Assembly: GCA_945957175.1 (NCBI GenBank)
Contig: CAMFJL010000006.1
Location: 30,137 to 94,136, forward strand
From: an uncultured Legionellales bacterium
GTDB lineage: Bacteria; Pseudomonadota; Gammaproteobacteria; UBA1113
Direction of reading: 5' to 3'
Length of the DNA stretch: 64,000 bases
Positions within the stretch are counted from its first letter, which is position 1; every line of letters begins with the position of its first letter. Made by a program: the position numbers and the translations under genes. Below the pieces are notes generated by a model. The model made no database searches. It was not told where the DNA came from and saw only the letters and a program-made list of their open reading frames with translations. This document shows positions 4,665 through 47,138 of the stretch, piece by piece.

Positions 4665-6311
<1,647 letters not shown>

Positions 6312-13153: not shown

Positions 13154-14548
13154 GTGATGAATCAAGTACGTATTGAAAACGATAGCATGGGTGATATTGA
13201 AGTGCCTGCCAATGTGTATTGGGGTGCACAAACCGCAAGATCCTTACACCATTTTCCCATTGGGCACGATACGATGCCACCAGCGGTGATTCGTGCATTT
13301 GGTCAGCTTAAAAAAGCAGCTGCAATGGCTAACCGTGATTTGGGTAAGTTACCTCCCGAAGTTGCCGATGCGATTATCAAAGCAGCAGATGAAGTCATTG
13401 ATGGCAAATTATCAGGTCAATTCCCTTTAAAAATTTGGCAAACGGGTAGCGGTACACAAACAAACATGAATGTGAATGAAGTTATTGCTAACCGGGCTAT
13501 CGAATTAACTGGTGGCGTGCTAGGTAGCAAAAAACCAGTGCATCCCAACGATCATGTCAATATGTCACAATCCTCCAATGATACTTTTCCAACAGCCATG
13601 TACATGGCAGCAGCTGATGGTATTGTGCATAGTTTAGTGCCAGCGTTGACTCACTTAAAGCAGGCTTTAGCAGACAAAGCACAAGCATTCGATGCGATGG
13701 TTAAAATTGGTCGCACGCATTTACAAGATGCGGTGCCTATGACTTTAGGGCAAGAGTTTTCAGGTTATGTACAACAGTTAAGCTATGGGCTTAGCTATTT
13801 GCAGACGACCTTACCATCGCTATATCAATTAGCTATTGGCGGCACAGCTGTCGGTACGGGTTTGAATACGCATCCTGAATTTGCAGAACGTACGGCTAAG
13901 TATATCGCGACATTAACCGGATTACCCTTTGTCGATGCCGATAATAAGTTTGCTGCACTTGCTGGGCATGAAGCCTTGGTGTTTGCAAGTGGTGCGGTGC
14001 GTACGATTGCCACGAGTCTTATGAAAATAGCCAATGATATTCGTTGGTTAGGCTCAGGTCCTCGTTGTGGTTTAAATGAATTGGTATTACCCGCAAATGA
14101 ACCGGGTTCATCTATCATGCCTGGCAAAGTCAATCCAACGCAGTGCGAAGCGATGACGATGGTCTGTGTGCAAGTCATGGGTAATGATAGTGCGATTGCT
14201 ATCGCTGGCTCACAAGGTAATTTTGAATTAAATGTATATAAGCCAGTGATGATTCATAATTTCATGCACAGTGTTGATATACTATCAGGTGCGTGTGCGG
14301 CATTTACCGAGTTTTGTGTTGAAGGACTTGAAGCCAATGTGGCTCAGCTTAAACATTATGTTGATAATTCATTGATGTTGGTGACCGCATTAAACCCTGT
14401 GATAGGCTATGATAAAGCAGCACAGATTGCGAAAAAGGCGTATCATGATCAAAGTTCTTTGAAAGAAGCTTGTGTGGCGCTTGGTTTTCTCTCGGCCGCT
14501 GATTTTGACAAACATGTCAGGGCAGAGACCATGGTGCACCCTGGCTAA
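13154..14548 (+). CDS. fumC: class II fumarate hydratase
   Basis: 464 aa with [20 protein letters not shown], the fumarase (not aspartase) signature variant. Confidence 0.8.
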
Positions 14549-29306: not shown

Positions 29307-30401
29307 ATGTCAGGCAATAGTTTCGGGCAGCTTTTTAGAATCACAACATCAGGTGAATCGCATGGCGGGGCCTTGGCTGTCATTATTGACGGTTGTCCGC
29401 CTGGACTTGAGATAACGGAATTTGATATTCAAGCCGAGCTAGATAGACGCAAACCAGGGCAAAGTGCAATTACCACGCCACGTAAAGAAGCGGATAGAAT
29501 CCATATTTGTTCAGGTGTTTTTGAGGGTAAAACCACGGGTACCCCCATCCTTTTGCAGGCCTACAATGAAGATGCACGTCCGGAAGATTATGATGTGCTC
29601 AAGCAAGTGTATCGTCCTTCGCATGCTGATTTTACCTACGAGATGAAGTATGGTTTGCGTGACTTTCGCGGTAGCGGCCGTGCAAGTGCAAGAGAAACCT
29701 TGGCAAGGGTTGCTGCAGGTGCTATCGCTAAAAAATATCTTAAATTGCACTATCAGATAGAGATCCTTAGCTATGTTGAACAAGTAGGTACGATTCGTAC
29801 GGATATGCCCCATGAAGCAGTGACCCTGGATGCGATTGAAAGTAATGTGGTGCGTTGCCCTGATGCTGATGTTGCCAGCAAGATGATCCAACGTATCGGA
29901 GAGGTACAACAACAAGGTGATTCCATCGGTGGCATTATTAAGGGCGTGATAAGACATGCGCCACCAGGCTTAGGTGAGCCGGTTTTTGATAAATTATCAG
30001 CTGATTTAGGCAAAGCGATGCTTAGCATTAATGCAGTCAAAGGTTTTGATATGGGTAGTGGATTTGAAGGCGTCTCGATGCTAGGTAGTGCGCATAATGA
30101 TATCTTTGTTGTAAAAAATAAGCACGTAACAACCAAAACGAATTATGCCGGTGGAACACTCGGTGGCATTTCCACAGGTGAAACGATTTATTTTCGTGTT
30201 GCTTTTAAGCCCGTGGCAACTATCAGCAAAACGCAAGAAACCATAAACAAAGCGCATGAGCCTATTTTACTTGCTGCTAAAGGTCGACATGACCCTTGTG
30301 TATTGCCACGTGCGGTACCTATTGTGGATGCAATGGCCGCTTTAGTGATAATGGATCATGTATTAAGACATAGAGCACAGGTCAGCACATCCCTATCGTG
30401 A
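29307..30401 (+). CDS. aroC: chorismate synthase
   Basis: [21 protein letters not shown]-terminus; 364 aa from the ATG at 29307. Confidence 0.85.
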
Positions 30402-31264: not shown

Positions 31265-31340
<76 letters not shown>

Positions 31341-31452
31341 ATATTTTTTCACTTTTCTATGCGTTCACATAGCTAAGTTGCTCTGATAAAGCATACAAAA
31401 GTGATTTTTCATCAGATGATAATCACCCAAGATTCGCATCCGATATGCAATT

Positions 31453-31526
31453 GGCTGGGTGGCAGAGTGGTCATGCAGCGGCCTGCAAAGCCGCGTACGC
31501 CGGTTCGATTCCGGCCTCAGCCTCCA
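31453..31526 (+). tRNA. tRNA-Cys (anticodon GCA)
   Basis: 74 nt, GGCTGGGTGGCAGAGTGG…CCTGCAAAGC…GGTTCGATTCCGGCCTCAGCCTCCA. Confidence 0.85.
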
Positions 31527-31546
31527 CGTTTTATGTGCGTTATTAT

Positions 31547-31635
31547 GCCCGGGTGGCGAAACAGGTAGACGCAAGGGACTTAAAATCCCTCGGGACTTAA
31601 ATCCCGTGCCGGTTCGACTCCGGCCCCGGGCACCA
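31547..31635 (+). tRNA. tRNA-Leu (anticodon TAA), long-variable-arm type
   Basis: 89 nt, GCCCGGGTGGCGAAACAGGTAGACGC…GACTTAAAATCCC…GGTTCGACTCCGGCCCCGGGCACCA. Confidence 0.85.
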
Positions 31636-39580: not shown

Positions 39581-40624
39581 ATGGCGCAATTAGTTAACCC
39601 GCAAGCCTTATCATTTCACGATGTCTTATTGGTACCCCAGTATAGTGAGGTGGAAAGCCGATTAGACACGGACCTTACAACCAAGCTAACTAAACAACTG
39701 AGCATTGCGCATCCTGTTTGTGCAACTAATATGAGTACGGTGACCAGTGGCGGCATGTTAAGTGCAATGGCCAATACCGGTAGTGTGGGCTTATTGCATC
39801 GCTTTATGTCACATCACAAGATCATTCACAAATGTCAGACGTTTCGCCAGCAGCAGCCGAATGCTATCTTGATCCCGTCCATTGGCGTTAAAGCAGAGGA
39901 TTATGCGCTCGTAGATGCGCTAGTCGATAAGGTCAATCCTAATGCCTTGCTTGTCGATATTGCCCATGGCGATGCAGCACATGCTTACAAAATGTTGACA
40001 TATATTAAGCAACATTACGCTGATGTCGAAGTTATTTTTGGTAATTTAGCGACCGGTGCGGCGGCTAAGCGAGCTGTGGAAGCAGGTGCCGATGCTGTGC
40101 GTATGGGTATTGGTGGTGGCTCTTGTTGCACAACACGTACACAAACAGGCCACGGTGTTGCAACCTTGCAATCGATTGCGGATGCTTATGAGGTGTGTGC
40201 ACCTTATGATGTGCCAGTCTTAGGCGATGGCGGTTTCACGACGCCAGGGGATATTGTGAAAGCGCTGGCTTTTGGTGCAAGTGCAGTGACACTCGGGCGC
40301 ATGCTTGCCGGCACGTCAGCGGCACCTGGTGAGGTATTCGATGTCAAAGGCGAGAAATATAAAATTATGTATGGTATGTCATCTAATATGGCGCAAGAGA
40401 TTCATAAAGGTGGTATGAAACAAGGCATCGCCGCTGAGGGGCGTGCGATTCAAATTGCGTATCAAGGACATACAGAAGATGTTGTTGCTGATATTGTTGC
40501 AGCCATTCGTTCAGGACTTACCTATTCAGGTGCACGTAATCTTGTCGAGCTACGAGATAAGGCAGAATACGTCATTATTAGCACCGGCGGTATGCGCGAG
40601 AGTAAATTAATGGAAGGGGCCTAG
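39581..40624 (+). CDS. guaC: GMP reductase
   Basis: 347 aa, the same length as E. coli GuaC, with no CBS insert. The motifs …TNMSTV…, GIGGGSCCTTR, GDGGFTTPGDIVKA and MYGMSS are collinear with GuaC. Confidence 0.7.
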   Translation: MAQLVNPQALSFHDVLLVPQYSEVESRLDTDLTTKLTKQLSIAHPVCATNMSTVTSGGMLSAMANTGSVGLLHRFMSHHKIIHKCQTFRQQQPNAILIPSIGVKAEDYALVDALVDKVNPNALLVDIAHGDAAHAYKMLTYIKQHYADVEVIFGNLATGAAAKRAVEAGADAVRMGIGGGSCCTTRTQTGHGVATLQSIADAYEVCAPYDVPVLGDGGFTTPGDIVKALAFGASAVTLGRMLAGTSAAPGEVFDVKGEKYKIMYGMSSNMAQEIHKGGMKQGIAAEGRAIQIAYQGHTEDVVADIVAAIRSGLTYSGARNLVELRDKAEYVIISTGGMRESKLMEGA

Positions 40625-41994
40625 TGTTGACAACGAAAACGATACATACCTTAAGTGATATGACGCCCATGATGGCGCCACAGCATGCGCTTATCAACGA
40701 TGTTTTAATGCAAGCAAAAAAACTGGGTAGCAGCGAAGCTTCTGCGGAGATCCAATTTTCTGAAGGTTTTGATGTGGATGTGCGTTTAGGCGATGTTGAT
40801 AAAGTGAGTTTTAGGCGCGATCAAGGTTTAAGTGTGACGCTTTATCATGGCAAGCAATGTGGTACAGCAACAAGCACAGATTTAACGCCAGCCTCGATTC
40901 GCGCAACGGTTGAAAAAGCCTGGACCATGGCACAGTTTTGTGAGGCTGATGCGGCTAATGGTTTGCCAGATAAAGCTAAACAAGCCTTTGCTTACTCAGA
41001 TTTGCATTTGCACACGCCATGGCAAATCACGCCAGAACAAGCGATTTCACAAGCAACTGAAGCAGAAGCGCAAGGTCTTGCGTATGATTCACGCATTGTC
41101 AATTCAGAAGGTGCCAGTGTAAGCACGACTCAGCAATTGTTTACCTACGGCGATAGCCAAGGATTTATTGGTAGCTATCCTTCAAGTATACATAGCTTAT
41201 CTGTTTGTTTAATCGCAGGTGCTGACGGGCAGATGGAGCGTGACTACGATTATGCGCTTGCAAGAGATCCAAAAAAATTAGGAGATTTTGCCTTATTAGC
41301 CAAGCTTGCTGCGGATAAAGCAGTAAAACGATTATCACCTAAACCTATTAAAACAGGCCATTATCCAGTGATTTTATTGCCGGAAGTGGCGCGTGGTTTC
41401 TTATCACACCTTATCAGTGCTTTATATGGTAGTAGCTTATATAAGCGCATGTCATTTTTAGTTGATAGTCTAGGTCAAGCGGTGCTGCCAACAGAAATTA
41501 GCCTATTAGAACAGCCACATTTGTTAGGTGCTGTCGGCAGTGCACCGTTTGATGCTGAAGGTGTTGCGACGCAAGAGCAAATGCTGATTGAGGAAGGTCG
41601 TGTCGCACGTTATGTATTAGGCAGTTATTCTGCACGTAAATTAGGTTTAGAAACGACAGGTAATGCAGGCGGCATTCATAATGTCACGGTACAAAGTAGT
41701 AAACCACAACCAGATTTACCGACATTGATAGCAGATATGGATGATGGTTTAGTGATTACCGACGTAATGGGACAGGGTGTGAATTTAATTACAGGTGATT
41801 ACTCGCGTGGCGCCAGTGGTTTTTTAGTGAAAGCAGGTAAAATTGTACATCCTGTTTCGGAGATTACGCTAGCAGGGCATTTACGCGAGTTGTATCGCGA
41901 CATCATCGCGATTGCTAATGATGTCGACTTACGCGGCAATATCCGCACCGGTTCGATTTTATTAAAACAAATGATGGTTGCTAGTGCACCATAG
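40624..41994 (+). CDS. pmbA: metalloprotease PmbA (TldE)
   Basis: 456 aa, collinear with E. coli PmbA (…TLYHGKQCGTATSTDLTP…, GVNLITGDYSRGASGFLVKAGKI). Confidence 0.75.
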   Translation: MLTTKTIHTLSDMTPMMAPQHALINDVLMQAKKLGSSEASAEIQFSEGFDVDVRLGDVDKVSFRRDQGLSVTLYHGKQCGTATSTDLTPASIRATVEKAWTMAQFCEADAANGLPDKAKQAFAYSDLHLHTPWQITPEQAISQATEAEAQGLAYDSRIVNSEGASVSTTQQLFTYGDSQGFIGSYPSSIHSLSVCLIAGADGQMERDYDYALARDPKKLGDFALLAKLAADKAVKRLSPKPIKTGHYPVILLPEVARGFLSHLISALYGSSLYKRMSFLVDSLGQAVLPTEISLLEQPHLLGAVGSAPFDAEGVATQEQMLIEEGRVARYVLGSYSARKLGLETTGNAGGIHNVTVQSSKPQPDLPTLIADMDDGLVITDVMGQGVNLITGDYSRGASGFLVKAGKIVHPVSEITLAGHLRELYRDIIAIANDVDLRGNIRTGSILLKQMMVASAP

Positions 41995-41998
41995 CCAT

Positions 41999-43444
41999 TT
42001 ACATAATGGCTTTGGATTTAATCACCAACATTTTCTCTATTTGCATATCGTGCATCGTGTAAGGAATGCCGCCTACACCTAAACCTGAATGTTTAAGTCC
42101 AGCAAAGGGCATACCGTCTACACGAAATGCAGTGTGATCGTTGACCATAACGGCGGATGCTTGCATATACTCATACACATGTAGGGCGGTATCAATATTT
42201 TGCGTAAAGACAGCTGCTTGAAATGCAACGGGTAAGTCGTTGGCAAGACGGATAGCCTCATCGATATCTTCATAAGCATAAACACATACCACTGGGCCAA
42301 AGACTTCTTCTTGGCTTACTTTTGCCGTTTGTGGCGGATTGAGCAATACTGTGGGTTCATAGCAAAACGCACTGATGCGTTTACCACCACACATAAGTTT
42401 TGCACCGGCTTGAATGGCTTCTTGTACCCAACTGTCAACACGATCCACTTCTTGTGGGCGAATCAAGGGTCCAACTTCGGTGTTGGCAAGGGTAGGATCG
42501 CCTACAACTAACGCGCTTGCTTGTTTGACTAATTCAGATGTCAGTGCGTCAACGATGTTGCAGTCAGCAAAAATGCGTTGTACGGATACGCATACTTGTC
42601 CAGCATGATAAAAACCACCCTTCACTAAGGCTGGAATCGCGATGGCGAGATCCGCATCTTTGGCAACAATGACAGGAGCAACGCCTCCGTGTTCAAGTGA
42701 GCAACGCGTGCCTTGTGCAAGTTGTGAACGTAAATACCAGCCCACGCGTGCGCTACCGATAAAGCTTAAAAAGGCGACTCTGGAGTCAGCAACGAGTTTG
42801 GTCGCTAAGGCGTTATCACTAATAATAAGGGCTTGACACCAAGCTACGGGAAGGCCGGCTTCATGAAAGAGTGTAACTAAACGTAAACAAGAGAGTGGGG
42901 TATCGCTTGCGGGTTTAACGATAACTGGACAACCCACAGCGACAGCGGCAGCAACTTGATGAACAATTAAGTTTAGCGGGTGATTAAAGGCACTCACGGC
43001 AACGACGACACCGATAGGTTCTTTTTGTGTGAAAGCGATGCGATTAGCGGCTGAGCTTGTACTTCGCATGGGTATGACATGCCCTTGCTCGGTACGAAGT
43101 GTGTCGATACAAAGCCTGATGCCATCTATGGCACGATGGGCTTCTACGCGTGAGTCTATCAGTGGTTTGCCGCCTTCACGGGCTGCTTCTAATGCTAATT
43201 CCTCAACGCGTTCGGTCATGAGCGTAGCAACGCGCTCGAGTATTTGAATGCGTTCTGTAAGCGGCAACCAGCTATGCCTTTGGGTAAATAGCTGATGCGC
43301 TTGCGATAGTGCTTGTTCAATCATGGCCGCATTTGCGCGCTCAACGGTTGCAATGAGGTGTCTATCAAAAGGAGCAATCACGTCCATGGATTCCTCGGTG
43401 TGTTGCTTGTCTGCGACTAAACAAGAAAAATGAGGTACTGTCAT
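41999..43444 (-). CDS. NAD(P)-dependent aldehyde dehydrogenase family protein
   Basis: ALDH fold with a catalytic Cys region …HAGQVCVS… and a Glu region …LEHGG…. The start is ambiguous: TTG at 43462, ATG at 43444 or ATG at 43387. It lies just downstream of, and on the same strand as, the ThDP enzyme. Confidence 0.65.
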   Translation of the reverse strand: MTVPHFSCLVADKQHTEESMDVIAPFDRHLIATVERANAAMIEQALSQAHQLFTQRHSWLPLTERIQILERVATLMTERVEELALEAAREGGKPLIDSRVEAHRAIDGIRLCIDTLRTEQGHVIPMRSTSSAANRIAFTQKEPIGVVVAVSAFNHPLNLIVHQVAAAVAVGCPVIVKPASDTPLSCLRLVTLFHEAGLPVAWCQALIISDNALATKLVADSRVAFLSFIGSARVGWYLRSQLAQGTRCSLEHGGVAPVIVAKDADLAIAIPALVKGGFYHAGQVCVSVQRIFADCNIVDALTSELVKQASALVVGDPTLANTEVGPLIRPQEVDRVDSWVQEAIQAGAKLMCGGKRISAFCYEPTVLLNPPQTAKVSQEEVFGPVVCVYAYEDIDEAIRLANDLPVAFQAAVFTQNIDTALHVYEYMQASAVMVNDHTAFRVDGMPFAGLKHSGLGVGGIPYTMHDMQIEKMLVIKSKAIM

Positions 43445-43454
43445 CACAAATCTC

Positions 43455-45092
43455 CTATGCAATGGGACATTCTAAGTTTTGTAACTGTTCTGTTAATTTC
43501 ATATTTTCACTGTAATCAACAGGTACATCGATAATCACCACCGTATTATCACGGATGGCTTGCTGAATCGTTGGCACAAGCTCAGCAGCACTATTGACAC
43601 GATAACCTTTAGCGCCAAAGCTTTGTGCAAACTGAACAAAATCAGGGTTTTTAAAATCGATATGACTTTCCCTGCCAAAATGCATTAATTGTTTCCATTT
43701 AATGAGACCATACTCACTGTCATTCCAGATAACAATAATAATGGGCGTATTTATCCTCATGGCAGTTTCTATTTCCTGGCAATTCATTAAAAAGCCAGCA
43801 TCACCGGTTACAGCCACAATGGTTCTGTCAGGATGCACGAGTTTTGCACTGATAGCGCCTGGTATAGCAATGCCCATAGAAGCAAAACCGTTGGAGATAA
43901 TGCAAGTATTCGGCAAATTGGCTTGATACATACGTGCCATCCACATTTTGTGTGCGCCTACATCGCTGATACAAATATCTTCATCTTTAAGTGCTTGACG
44001 TAAGTCCCAAACAATTTTTTGAGGCTTGATGGGAAAACTGGTGTCATTTGCATGCGCTTCGATTTCTTGAGTGATGCGCTGGCGCAGGGCTTGTTGTGTT
44101 TCAGTATTCACTTTAGAAACTTGTTGCGCAAGGATATTTAAGGTTTCGCTGACATTACCTACAATACCACAAGCTAAAATATAATATTCATCTACTTCAG
44201 CAGGCGAAGCGTCGATATGAATAATCTTTTTGGATGTATCGGCATGCCATAAATATGGATGGTATTCCACCATATCAAAGCCGACACAAATGATAACATC
44301 GGTTTTATCAAAGGCACAGCCAACAAGATCATGCGCTTGTAAACCGACAGTGCCAAGGCTCAAAGGATGTTTAAATGGAATAATACCTTTTGCCATAAAT
44401 GTATTAGCCACAGGGATATTTAATTTTTCTGCGAAGGCAACGAGTGCATCACTTGCATGTGTGCGGATAACACCATTGCCTGCAAGAATAAGCGGGGCTT
44501 TAGCCTTCGTGATAATATCAGCAGCTTGGTAAATTTTTTCAATGGAAGGAGTCGGTAGCGTTGGTGCTTGTGCTTTTAATGGGACTTTATCGCCGGCATC
44601 CATGGCAGCAATATTTTCGGGTAAATCGATGAAAGTTGCACCTGGTTTTTCGGTTTGCGCCACTTTGAAGGCTTTACGTGTGATTTCTGCAACAATGGTT
44701 GGTTCTAAAATCTGGGCACTGTATTTAGTAATCGGGGTAAACATATTCACTAAGTTTAAGACTTGATGACTTTCTTTGTGTAAGCGTGTTGTACCAGCTT
44801 GGCCGGCAATAGCCACAAGCGGGGCTCTGTCAAGCTGGGCATCGGCAACACCCGTAATTAAATTCGTGGCGCCAGGCCCTAATGTCGCTAAGCACACACC
44901 GGCTTTACCGGTGAGCCGACCATACACATCAGCCATGAATGCAGCGCCTTGTTCGTGGCGTGTCGTAATAAAGCGAATTTTACTATCAAGTAACGCATCC
45001 ATCACATCCAGATTTTCTTCGCCTGGAATCCCAAAGATGGTTGTAACACCCTCATTCTCAAGGCATTTGACAAATAACTCTGCAACATTCAT
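43455..45092 (-). CDS. thiamine-diphosphate-dependent enzyme, acetolactate-synthase-like (catabolic ALS / pyruvate-oxidase family)
   Basis: 545 aa with the N-terminal Pyr domain (…GIPGEEN…), a central FAD/TPP_M-like domain and the C-terminal ThDP-binding motif GDAGFLMN…N. There is no small-subunit gene nearby. Confidence 0.6.
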   Translation of the reverse strand: MNVAELFVKCLENEGVTTIFGIPGEENLDVMDALLDSKIRFITTRHEQGAAFMADVYGRLTGKAGVCLATLGPGATNLITGVADAQLDRAPLVAIAGQAGTTRLHKESHQVLNLVNMFTPITKYSAQILEPTIVAEITRKAFKVAQTEKPGATFIDLPENIAAMDAGDKVPLKAQAPTLPTPSIEKIYQAADIITKAKAPLILAGNGVIRTHASDALVAFAEKLNIPVANTFMAKGIIPFKHPLSLGTVGLQAHDLVGCAFDKTDVIICVGFDMVEYHPYLWHADTSKKIIHIDASPAEVDEYYILACGIVGNVSETLNILAQQVSKVNTETQQALRQRITQEIEAHANDTSFPIKPQKIVWDLRQALKDEDICISDVGAHKMWMARMYQANLPNTCIISNGFASMGIAIPGAISAKLVHPDRTIVAVTGDAGFLMNCQEIETAMRINTPIIIVIWNDSEYGLIKWKQLMHFGRESHIDFKNPDFVQFAQSFGAKGYRVNSAAELVPTIQQAIRDNTVVIIDVPVDYSENMKLTEQLQNLECPIA

Positions 45093-45120
45093 AGGAATAA
45101 TCCCTCATATCATTTAAAAC

Positions 45121-45381
45121 TTATACCAAAGTAATGCGCAATGCATGGATTTCGTGAGGTATGAAATCAGCAAGGGTTTGATACACTTTGCGATGCAAGA
45201 TAATTAAACTGCCATATGATTGCAGGGCGCTTCGTGAAAGCCTTACCTCATAATGGCTTGCGCCATGCATTGCACCCGCATGTCCTAAGTGTTCTTCACT
45301 TTCATCATAGAGAGCCAGGAAATCCGCGCCGAACTGTCGTTGAAGTAACTGTTCAACTCGCGAGAATCGCGTTTGTGTCAC
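45121..45381 (-). CDS. BolA-family protein
   Basis: 86 aa with a C-terminal …IHALRITL motif. Its start codon abuts the map stop. Confidence 0.55.
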   Translation of the reverse strand: MTQTRFSRVEQLLQRQFGADFLALYDESEEHLGHAGAMHGASHYEVRLSRSALQSYGSLIILHRKVYQTLADFIPHEIHALRITLV

Positions 45382-46151: not shown

Positions 46152-46364
46152 TGTATTGAAACCTTGTTATTTGACTACAATTGTGATATAACGTCGCGAC
46201 GCTCTATGTTCCAAGGGAACGTAGAGTGAAGTATAGACGAAAACACACACTTATGGTTAACACTATTTTGGGTGCCTAAGGTCTTTCCCTGTTTAGCATA
46301 AGCAAGGGATTACTTAGGTGAAATCGTGTTGTAAGTGGAGGCTTAACCCAAGAGGAGTAGATAC

Positions 46365-47138
46365 ATGGCCCACGTGAGCTTACGAGAAATGTTACAAGAA
46401 GGTGTCCACTTTGGTCACCAAACCCGTTATTGGAATCCTAAAATGGCCCCCTTTATTTTTGGGGTTAATCGCAAGATTCATATCATCGATTTAGAGCAAA
46501 CGCAGCGATTATTTGAAGATGCGCTCAATGCTATCAGCCGTATTGCTAGCAATCGCGGTAAGATTCTTTTTGTAGGTACGAAATACGCTGCACAAGATGC
46601 TGTGCGAGAAGCTGCAGAAAGCTGTGGTATGCCTTATGTCAACCATCGTTGGTTAGGTGGTATGTTGACTAATTACAAAACCATACGTCAACAAATCCGT
46701 CGGTTGAACGATTTAATTCGTATGAGTGTCGATGGTACCTTAAAGCACTTAACGAAGAAAGAAGGCTTAACTATCATGCGCGAGCAAGAAAAGTTAGAAC
46801 GAAGCCTTGGCGGGATTAAAGAGATGGGTGGTTTACCCGATGCTTTATTTATTATCGATGTCGGTCATGAAGATATTGCGGTCAAAGAAGCCAAACGTCT
46901 TGGTATTCCCGTGATTGGTATCGTTGATACCAACAATACCCCCGATGATATCGATTACATTATCCCTGGTAATGATGATGCAACGCGCGCTATTCGCCTT
47001 TACTGCAATAAAGCAGCAGAAGTGATTAACCAAGCCAAAGAAGCCTTGCAACTGTCTCAAGGCGGTGCTCAAAAAGATGACGTTGCTATAGACGCACCTG
47101 CGACACCTGCGCCTGAAGCACCTGCTGACGAAGCGTAA
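46365..47138 (+). CDS. rpsB: 30S ribosomal protein S2
   Basis: [27 protein letters not shown] is the canonical S2 N-terminus. Confidence 0.9.

Follow-up and report, generated by a model that had tools for sequence, protein, structure and literature searches.

Two adjacent genes in a 64,000-nt stretch of DNA from an uncultured bacterium of the Legionellales (the window: contig CAMFJL010000006.1, forward-strand positions 30,137 to 94,136) raise the question of which reactions are carried out by an enzyme of acetolactate synthase-like appearance and by the aldehyde dehydrogenase (ALDH) encoded directly after it. The former, a thiamine diphosphate (ThDP) enzyme of 545 aa, is encoded at 45092-43455 and the latter at 43444-41999, both on the minus strand. 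The initial annotation of the locus took them for a pathway-like pair in which decarboxylation of a 2-oxo acid precedes NAD(P)-dependent oxidation of the resulting aldehyde, and this is supported by membership of the ThDP enzyme in the OgdA/KGD family and by linkage of the two genes in 9/9 relatives. It is probable, though some way from secure, that the pair converts 2-oxoglutarate to succinic semialdehyde and this to succinate, as a two-gene bypass of 2-oxoglutarate dehydrogenase.

Such a bypass has a precedent. Cyanobacteria close the citric-acid cycle with an acetolactate synthase-like 2-oxoglutarate decarboxylase, OgdA/KGD, together with SsaD (PMC5160925; PMC10418658). Examples of the decarboxylase are SynPCC7002_A2770, Sll1981 and the Microcystis enzymes MaKGD and MiKGD, while SsaD is represented by A2771 (PMC5160925; PMC10418658), and in Synechococcus 7002 ogdA and ssaD form an operon (PMC5160925).

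The ThDP enzyme

Pfam recognises all three TPP_enzyme domains (N, M and C) in the ThDP enzyme, whose architecture is the FAD-independent one of AlsS. Its highest-scoring NCBIfam model is NF006187 (PRK08322, ‘acetolactate synthase large subunit’), at 807.8 bits against a cutoff of 509. On the same model the characterised MiKGD scores 877.8 bits and Bacillus subtilis AlsS, at 507.8, is under the cutoff; NF006187 is therefore probably the OgdA/KGD family of 2-oxoglutarate decarboxylases and its acetolactate synthase name a misnomer. The family is very large (> 8000 clusters match at E < 1e-50). Over its full length the window enzyme is 60.5–60.7% identical to MiKGD, and it is 56–60% identical to other cyanobacterial OgdA/KGD proteins; to AlsS of B. 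subtilis (36.9%) and Klebsiella pneumoniae the figure is ~37%. In a neighbour-joining tree of 48 sequences (distance bootstrap, AlsS as outgroup) it lies within a proteobacterial clade and joins the sulfur-oxidiser gammaproteobacterial and the cyanobacterial OgdA clades, MiKGD included, with a bootstrap of 94. The placement by hidden Markov models and phylogeny that the initial annotation had called for has thereby led to OgdA/KGD and not to a bona fide IlvB.

Comparison at the level of individual residues was made with MaKGD, peptides of which were derived from published mutagenesis primers. A scan of reference genomes for NDGGYGLIEWK gave 120 loci, mostly cyanobacterial, including the contig of Microcystis aeruginosa NIES-4325 that encodes the characterised MiKGD (locus L118). 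Fourteen residues are assigned to substrate or cofactor binding in MaKGD: E50, Q254, V382, A384, H385, K386, A408, M410, D435, D462, Y465, L467, K471 and Y531 (PMC10418658). All fourteen are identical in the window enzyme, as E47, Q252, V378, A380, H381, K382, A404, M406, D431, D458, Y461, L463, K467 and Y527. Its Lys382, Lys467 and Gln252 occupy the positions to which docking and mutagenesis assigned the substrate carboxylates in the Microcystis enzyme. There, Lys471 is the docked salt-bridge partner of the distal carboxylate of the substrate, and in a test of six 2-oxo acids the enzyme showed strict specificity for 2-oxoglutarate (PMC10418658).

AlsS is unlike KGD at six of the fourteen positions. 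From AlsS to the window enzyme the differences, in MaKGD numbering, are Phe to Gln at 254, Ser to Ala at 384, Ala or His to Lys at 386, Gln to Ala at 408, Met to Leu at 467 and Gln (Q487 of AlsS) to Lys at 471. The pocket of the window enzyme is not that of AlsS, in that Q487 of the B. subtilis protein and the Gln of its NG(M/Q)QT motif correspond to K467 and A404. On the strength of its family and its active site, the enzyme is most likely a 2-oxoglutarate decarboxylase like the one with which cyanobacteria close the cycle.

The aldehyde dehydrogenase and its linkage

The ALDH gene is taken to begin at an ATG and to encode 481 aa, the form also chosen when the genes of this contig were called independently (the longest open reading frame, ORF, begins at a TTG at 43462). 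The protein matches Pfam Aldedh at 433 bits and has the catalytic residues N154, E251 and C285. No NCBIfam equivalog cutoff is reached. Models of the SsaD/GabD type give 292 bits against a cutoff of 646 (TIGR01780) and 238 against 730 (NF006915, on which cyanobacterial SsaD scores 644), and identity to the SsaD-type ALDH beside cyanobacterial ogdA is ~30%. The best solved relative is moss ALDH21 (288 bits, 1.8e-84, 35.4% identity), with a lactaldehyde dehydrogenase of Methanocaldococcus (280 bits) and three Burkholderia ALDHs, all uncharacterised, close behind it. The subfamily assignment, another of the checks suggested at the outset, is accordingly ALDH21-like, at a level below equivalog.

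In ALDH21 the carboxylate of succinic semialdehyde is bound by Arg121, Tyr296 and Arg457 (bioRxiv 10.64898/2026.01.13.699213). Their counterparts in the window ALDH are R104, Y279 and R441, and the trio is invariant in 48/48 ALDH21-like relatives; in cyanobacterial SsaD, which is not orthologous, these positions are K, L and D. The KPAS motif is also kept (Ser180), which would be compatible with the use of NADP+. Physcomitrium ALDH21 (PDB 5MZ5/5MZ8), an NADP+-dependent succinic semialdehyde dehydrogenase, has the catalytic Asn/Glu/Cys, the carboxylate trio and KPAS in common with the window ALDH; it differs in being a eukaryotic cytosolic enzyme of the γ-aminobutyric acid (GABA) shunt that is not linked to a decarboxylase. 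The window ALDH is proposed to be a succinic semialdehyde dehydrogenase, ALDH21-like rather than of the cyanobacterial SsaD type.

Evidence that the two genes belong together comes from other genomes. In all nine relatives that could be located on contigs (71–81% identity in the ThDP enzyme) the order is ThDP gene then ALDH gene, with short spacers, in neighbourhoods that are otherwise unrelated. In two of the nine the pair adjoins icmT-icmS-icmQ-dotM-dotL and those hosts are therefore Legionellales; one close homologue of the ThDP enzyme carries the source label ‘Legionellales bacterium’. The gene psd is convergently downstream of the pair in four of the nine. A metagenome search that started from the ALDH found an OgdA-like gene next to 24 relatives, either before or after the ALDH gene. 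Some of these ALDHs are beside a sister OgdA-like clade (48–50% identity, 737 bits on NF006187; loci L138, L140, L164-L173, L182, L187 and L191), in which position 254 is Gly in most members and position 408 is Cys, with the remaining active-site residues unchanged. In this clade, too, the partner is an ALDH21-like ALDH, whose gene mostly precedes the ThDP gene, and the substrate of the clade may differ. In cyanobacteria ssaD is directly upstream of ogdA in 76 of the 80 informative loci. The sulfur-oxidiser-type OgdA genes (L040, L110 and L111, from gammaproteobacterial metagenome-assembled genomes) are followed by a conserved ORF of ~250–270 aa with the motif SYNIQ-G.

Proposed route and its alternatives

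In the first of the two steps proposed, the OgdA-type enzyme, with ThDP and Mg2+, would decarboxylate 2-oxoglutarate non-oxidatively to succinic semialdehyde and CO2, as its family membership and active-site identity suggest. In the second, for which gene linkage and the conserved carboxylate-binding residues argue, the ALDH21-like enzyme would oxidise succinic semialdehyde to succinate with NAD(P)+. Both 2-oxoglutarate dehydrogenase and succinyl-CoA synthetase would be bypassed. The substrates and the coenzyme are inferred here, and the ALDH that adjoins the ThDP gene in every one of the nine relatives is not of the SsaD type. A likely source of the 2-oxoglutarate is the large NAD-specific glutamate dehydrogenase of 1613 aa that is encoded ~19 kb from the pair (19311-24152, plus strand; PF05088 at 874 bits, plus ACT and helical-motif domains). 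That at least part of the citric-acid cycle is encoded in this genome is shown by a class II fumarase (13154-14548, plus strand; Lyase_1 and FumaraseC_C domains). The two are circumstantial in their bearing, and fit a glutamate-fed supply of 2-oxoglutarate.

The resemblance to the cyanobacterial system lies in membership of NF006187, 57–61% identity to OgdA/KGD, the shared active site and the adjoining ALDH gene, and extends to the predicted net conversion of 2-oxoglutarate to succinate via succinic semialdehyde. The differences are in the host, here a gammaproteobacterium (probably one of the Legionellales) that is heterotrophic and non-photosynthetic, in the dehydrogenase, which is a different one, and in the gene order, which is reversed, the ThDP enzyme coming before the ALDH.

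Several observations weigh against 2-oxoglutarate and succinic semialdehyde as the substrates, or against the pair as a fixed unit. Identity of 60% leaves a change of substrate possible, and the members of the decarboxylase family that have been assayed are cyanobacterial only. At the position of Lys471 of MaKGD, where the window protein has Lys, 71 of 122 close homologues have His and the other 51 have Lys. The ALDH is just 35% identical to ALDH21 and about as far from the Methanocaldococcus lactaldehyde dehydrogenase (288 versus 280 bits). Arg228 of ALDH21, said to lie in the NADP+-sealing loop in the 2017 work of Kopecna et al., is Asp210 in the window ALDH and Asp, Asn, Ser or Gly in its relatives. 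The Methanocaldococcus enzyme (MJ1411; PDB 3PQA; NF040648), in the same sub-clade as the window ALDH, also has both arginines of the trio, and since it does so the trio is to be regarded as supportive of succinic semialdehyde use and not as diagnostic. (MJ1411 differs in having Ile at the position of Tyr296 and an archaeal cofactor-biosynthesis context; the score of the window ALDH on NF040648 is 378, the cutoff being 650.) In the sulfur-oxidiser clade of gammaproteobacterial OgdA no ALDH gene adjoins the ThDP gene. Finally, of the ALDH relatives with both flanks visible, 16 (~40%) have no ThDP neighbour. A common alternative partner for these was considered and rejected, their neighbours being heterogeneous: glutamate-synthase-like, SpoT, lipoamide-dehydrogenase-like, CoA-transferase with enoyl-CoA hydratase, and a second ALDH.

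Is the ThDP enzyme an acetolactate synthase after all? Its closest solved structures are catabolic AlsS (1e-107 to 1e-125), and the second-best NCBIfam model, AlsS NF006378, gives 538 bits, slightly over its cutoff of 510. Catabolic AlsS/BudB of B. subtilis and K. pneumoniae is like it too in the FAD-independent three-domain ThDP fold, in its similar length and in needing no small subunit. The enzyme would then carboligate pyruvate towards acetoin and the ALDH would be an unrelated neighbour. However, NF006187 scores 270 bits higher, the score on TIGR02418 (AlsS) is 495.7 against a cutoff of 551.1, identity is low, the six pocket positions differ, and partners are missing: there is no alsD or budC near the window pair and no alsD or budA in the relatives’ loci, where the ALDH is the constant companion. 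The other form of acetolactate synthase, an anabolic acetohydroxyacid synthase (AHAS) large subunit (IlvB/IlvI) whose small subunit would be encoded at another locus, is what the public family annotation would imply, but TIGR00118 (anabolic AHAS) gives 450.3 bits against a cutoff of 538.35, other AHAS models are far under their cutoffs, and the enzyme clusters apart from AHAS, whose structures match at 268 bits at most. RFDDR, the FAD-binding motif of anabolic AHAS large subunits, is absent, the equivalent stretch being GFDMVEYH, like AlsS and OgdA. No ilvN-like small subunit gene, ilvC or alsD is present within ~10 kb either side of the pair, as befits the stand-alone enzyme outside an ilv context that the initial annotation described. 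Both fall short on defining features tested, and the catabolic reading is rated very unlikely and the anabolic one scarcely credible. Judged by its sequence, the enzyme is not an acetolactate synthase of either type, anabolic or catabolic.

The same chemistry on another anionic 2-oxo acid is a more serious alternative, though an unlikely one. Candidate substrates are 2-oxoadipate (giving glutarate), 3-sulfopyruvate (giving sulfoacetate) and hydroxy- or phosphonopyruvate. The second-best NCBIfam match of the ALDH is the sulfoacetaldehyde dehydrogenase SafD (314 bits), with phosphonoacetaldehyde dehydrogenase at 293, but both scores are far under the cutoffs (700 for SafD and 636 for PhnY). A putative phosphonoformaldehyde dehydrogenase is in the same ALDH clade (PMC12041015), a saccharopine-dehydrogenase gene is near the pair in one relative, and the alternation of Lys and His at the position of Lys471 points the same way; set against these, the fourteen active-site residues are those of a strictly 2-oxoglutarate-specific enzyme, and genes of sulfonate, phosphonate or lysine catabolism are not recurrent neighbours of the pair in the window and the nine relative loci. 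Of the substrates given as examples in the initial annotation, a 2-oxo acid stands, most likely 2-oxoglutarate in view of the OgdA/KGD family, and a sulfo- or phosphono-substrate is less likely. It is improbable, in addition, that the ALDH chiefly serves a GABA route, with imported GABA or glutamate reaching succinic semialdehyde via a transaminase and OgdA as a minor second feeder. ALDH21 does act in the moss GABA shunt, and a homologue of the GadC-like glutamine/glutamate:GABA antiporter is divergently upstream of the pair in three of the nine relatives, of Legionellales type (minus strand; L128 6301-7707, L129 1321-2724 and L197 6265-7677). The best match of these permeases is TIGR03813 (Gln/GABA antiporter) at 447–486 bits, though, under the cutoff of 650, none is present at the window locus, and no GABA transaminase or glutamate decarboxylase gene is beside the pair in any locus examined.

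While the OgdA/SsaD bypass is already known, what would be new in a conversion of 2-oxoglutarate to succinate by the window pair is the ALDH21-like partner and the Legionellales host. Sphaerochaeta is a reported case, outside cyanobacteria, of an OgdA homologue without SsaD (PMC3372971). No description was found in the literature of OgdA paired with an ALDH21-like dehydrogenase, nor of the pair in Legionella, Legionellales or gammaproteobacteria. The broader proposition, that conversion of 2-oxoglutarate to succinate by OgdA with an ALDH21-type dehydrogenase has gone unrecognised and is widespread among non-photosynthetic bacteria, Dot/Icm-bearing Legionellales included, is evenly balanced between being right and being wrong. 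If right, it would mean that a cycle bypass supposed to be cyanobacterial also operates in gammaproteobacteria that are heterotrophic and probably host-associated, which would have recruited another dehydrogenase for its second step, and that the route needs neither lipoate nor CoA. It would bear on how succinic semialdehyde is oxidised where an OgdA homologue is present and SsaD is lacking (e.g. Sphaerochaeta), the ALDH21-like enzyme being the ‘missing’ succinic semialdehyde dehydrogenase. Thousands of proteins called ‘acetolactate synthase large subunit’ would be misnamed, the NF006187 name having spread to a very large family, and metabolic reconstruction of Legionellales-type metagenome assemblies would be affected, in that glutamate-fed carbon could reach succinate without a lipoylated dehydrogenase complex.

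Locus layout and transcription

The pair forms the 3′ part of a minus-strand run of four genes, map, a BolA-family ORF, the ogdA-like ThDP gene and the ALDH gene, and the same four are found in the independent gene call. The gene map (46151-45381) encodes a type I methionine aminopeptidase of 256 aa (TIGR00500 332.8 bits, cutoff 171). It overlaps the BolA-family gene (45381-45121; 86 aa; Pfam PF01722 48.6 bits, gathering threshold 25.7) by 1 nt, the GTG start of the latter sharing its first base with the end of the map stop codon (TAGTG). On NF008638, the E. coli BolA equivalog, this ORF scores 27.5, against a cutoff of 137. The spacer between it and the ThDP gene (45120-45093) is 28 nt long and has a ribosome-binding site, GAGGGA, 8 nt 5′ of the ATG; that between the ThDP and ALDH genes (43454-43445) is 10 nt long. 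The AGGAG for the latter overlaps the ogdA-like stop codon, which suggests translational coupling of the two genes. These coordinates and spacings are as initially reported, from the gapless passage of map into the BolA-family ORF to the short spacer before the ALDH gene.

The description of the pair as appended to map-bolA holds for this lineage and not elsewhere. The comparison of genome context that had been advised found the pair kept as a two-gene unit in the nine relatives, in unrelated neighbourhoods with neither map nor bolA near it, in agreement with the claim that it is no part of the conserved glnD-map-rpsB neighbourhood. The BolA-family ORF has no tblastn match in the loci examined from other organisms. 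The connection with map-bolA is specific to this lineage and its placement looks incidental. Recent horizontal insertion is not supported because the GC content of the four-gene stretch is uniform and matches its surroundings.

Within this lineage map is the probable first gene of a transcription unit, with the pair probably read through from the map promoter, co-transcription with map-bolA being inferred from the spacing. The genes map and rpsB are divergent, with a 213-nt spacer that contains the t44 rpsB leader (Rfam t44 RNA at 46226-46347, plus strand, 51.6 bits against a gathering score of 44; it is 5′ of rpsB, 46365-47138, in the position of the known rpsB 5′ leader). In a consensus scan of the minus strand no terminator-like site was found between map and the start of the ALDH gene. 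The 28-nt gap after the BolA-family ORF, in which the scan found no terminator-like or promoter-like site, is too short, as read, for a promoter of its own outside coding sequence. Promoter-like matches in the region are at the level of shuffled sequence (10 found, 9.7 expected), and an operon-specific promoter or terminator was rejected, as consensus matches are no commoner than in shuffled sequence. The best sigma-70-like match of the region (43469-43496, minus strand; TTAACA, 16 nt, TAGAAT; 10/12 positions) is within the 3′ end of the ThDP gene, shortly 5′ of the start codon of the ALDH gene, and might act as an internal promoter. With Rfam neither a riboswitch nor a leader was found for the ThDP-ALDH pair.

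Downstream, pmbA is convergent with the ALDH gene and ends at 41994. A 7-bp hairpin (41993-42011) spans the two stop codons, with a terminator-like match on the plus strand and T-rich sequence on the plus-strand side only; it is a possible weak terminator, whose role for the minus-strand unit is uncertain. The neighbours of the pair are map, bolA, pmbA and a GMP-reductase-like gene. Two IMPDH-family genes are present in the window. One, at 39581-40624 (plus strand), encodes 347 aa without CBS domains and is closest to GMP reductase, below every cutoff. The other, at 4686-6311 (plus strand), encodes 541 aa and has the CBS domains that are typical of IMP dehydrogenase. Three tRNA genes are clustered at 31265-31632 (plus strand).

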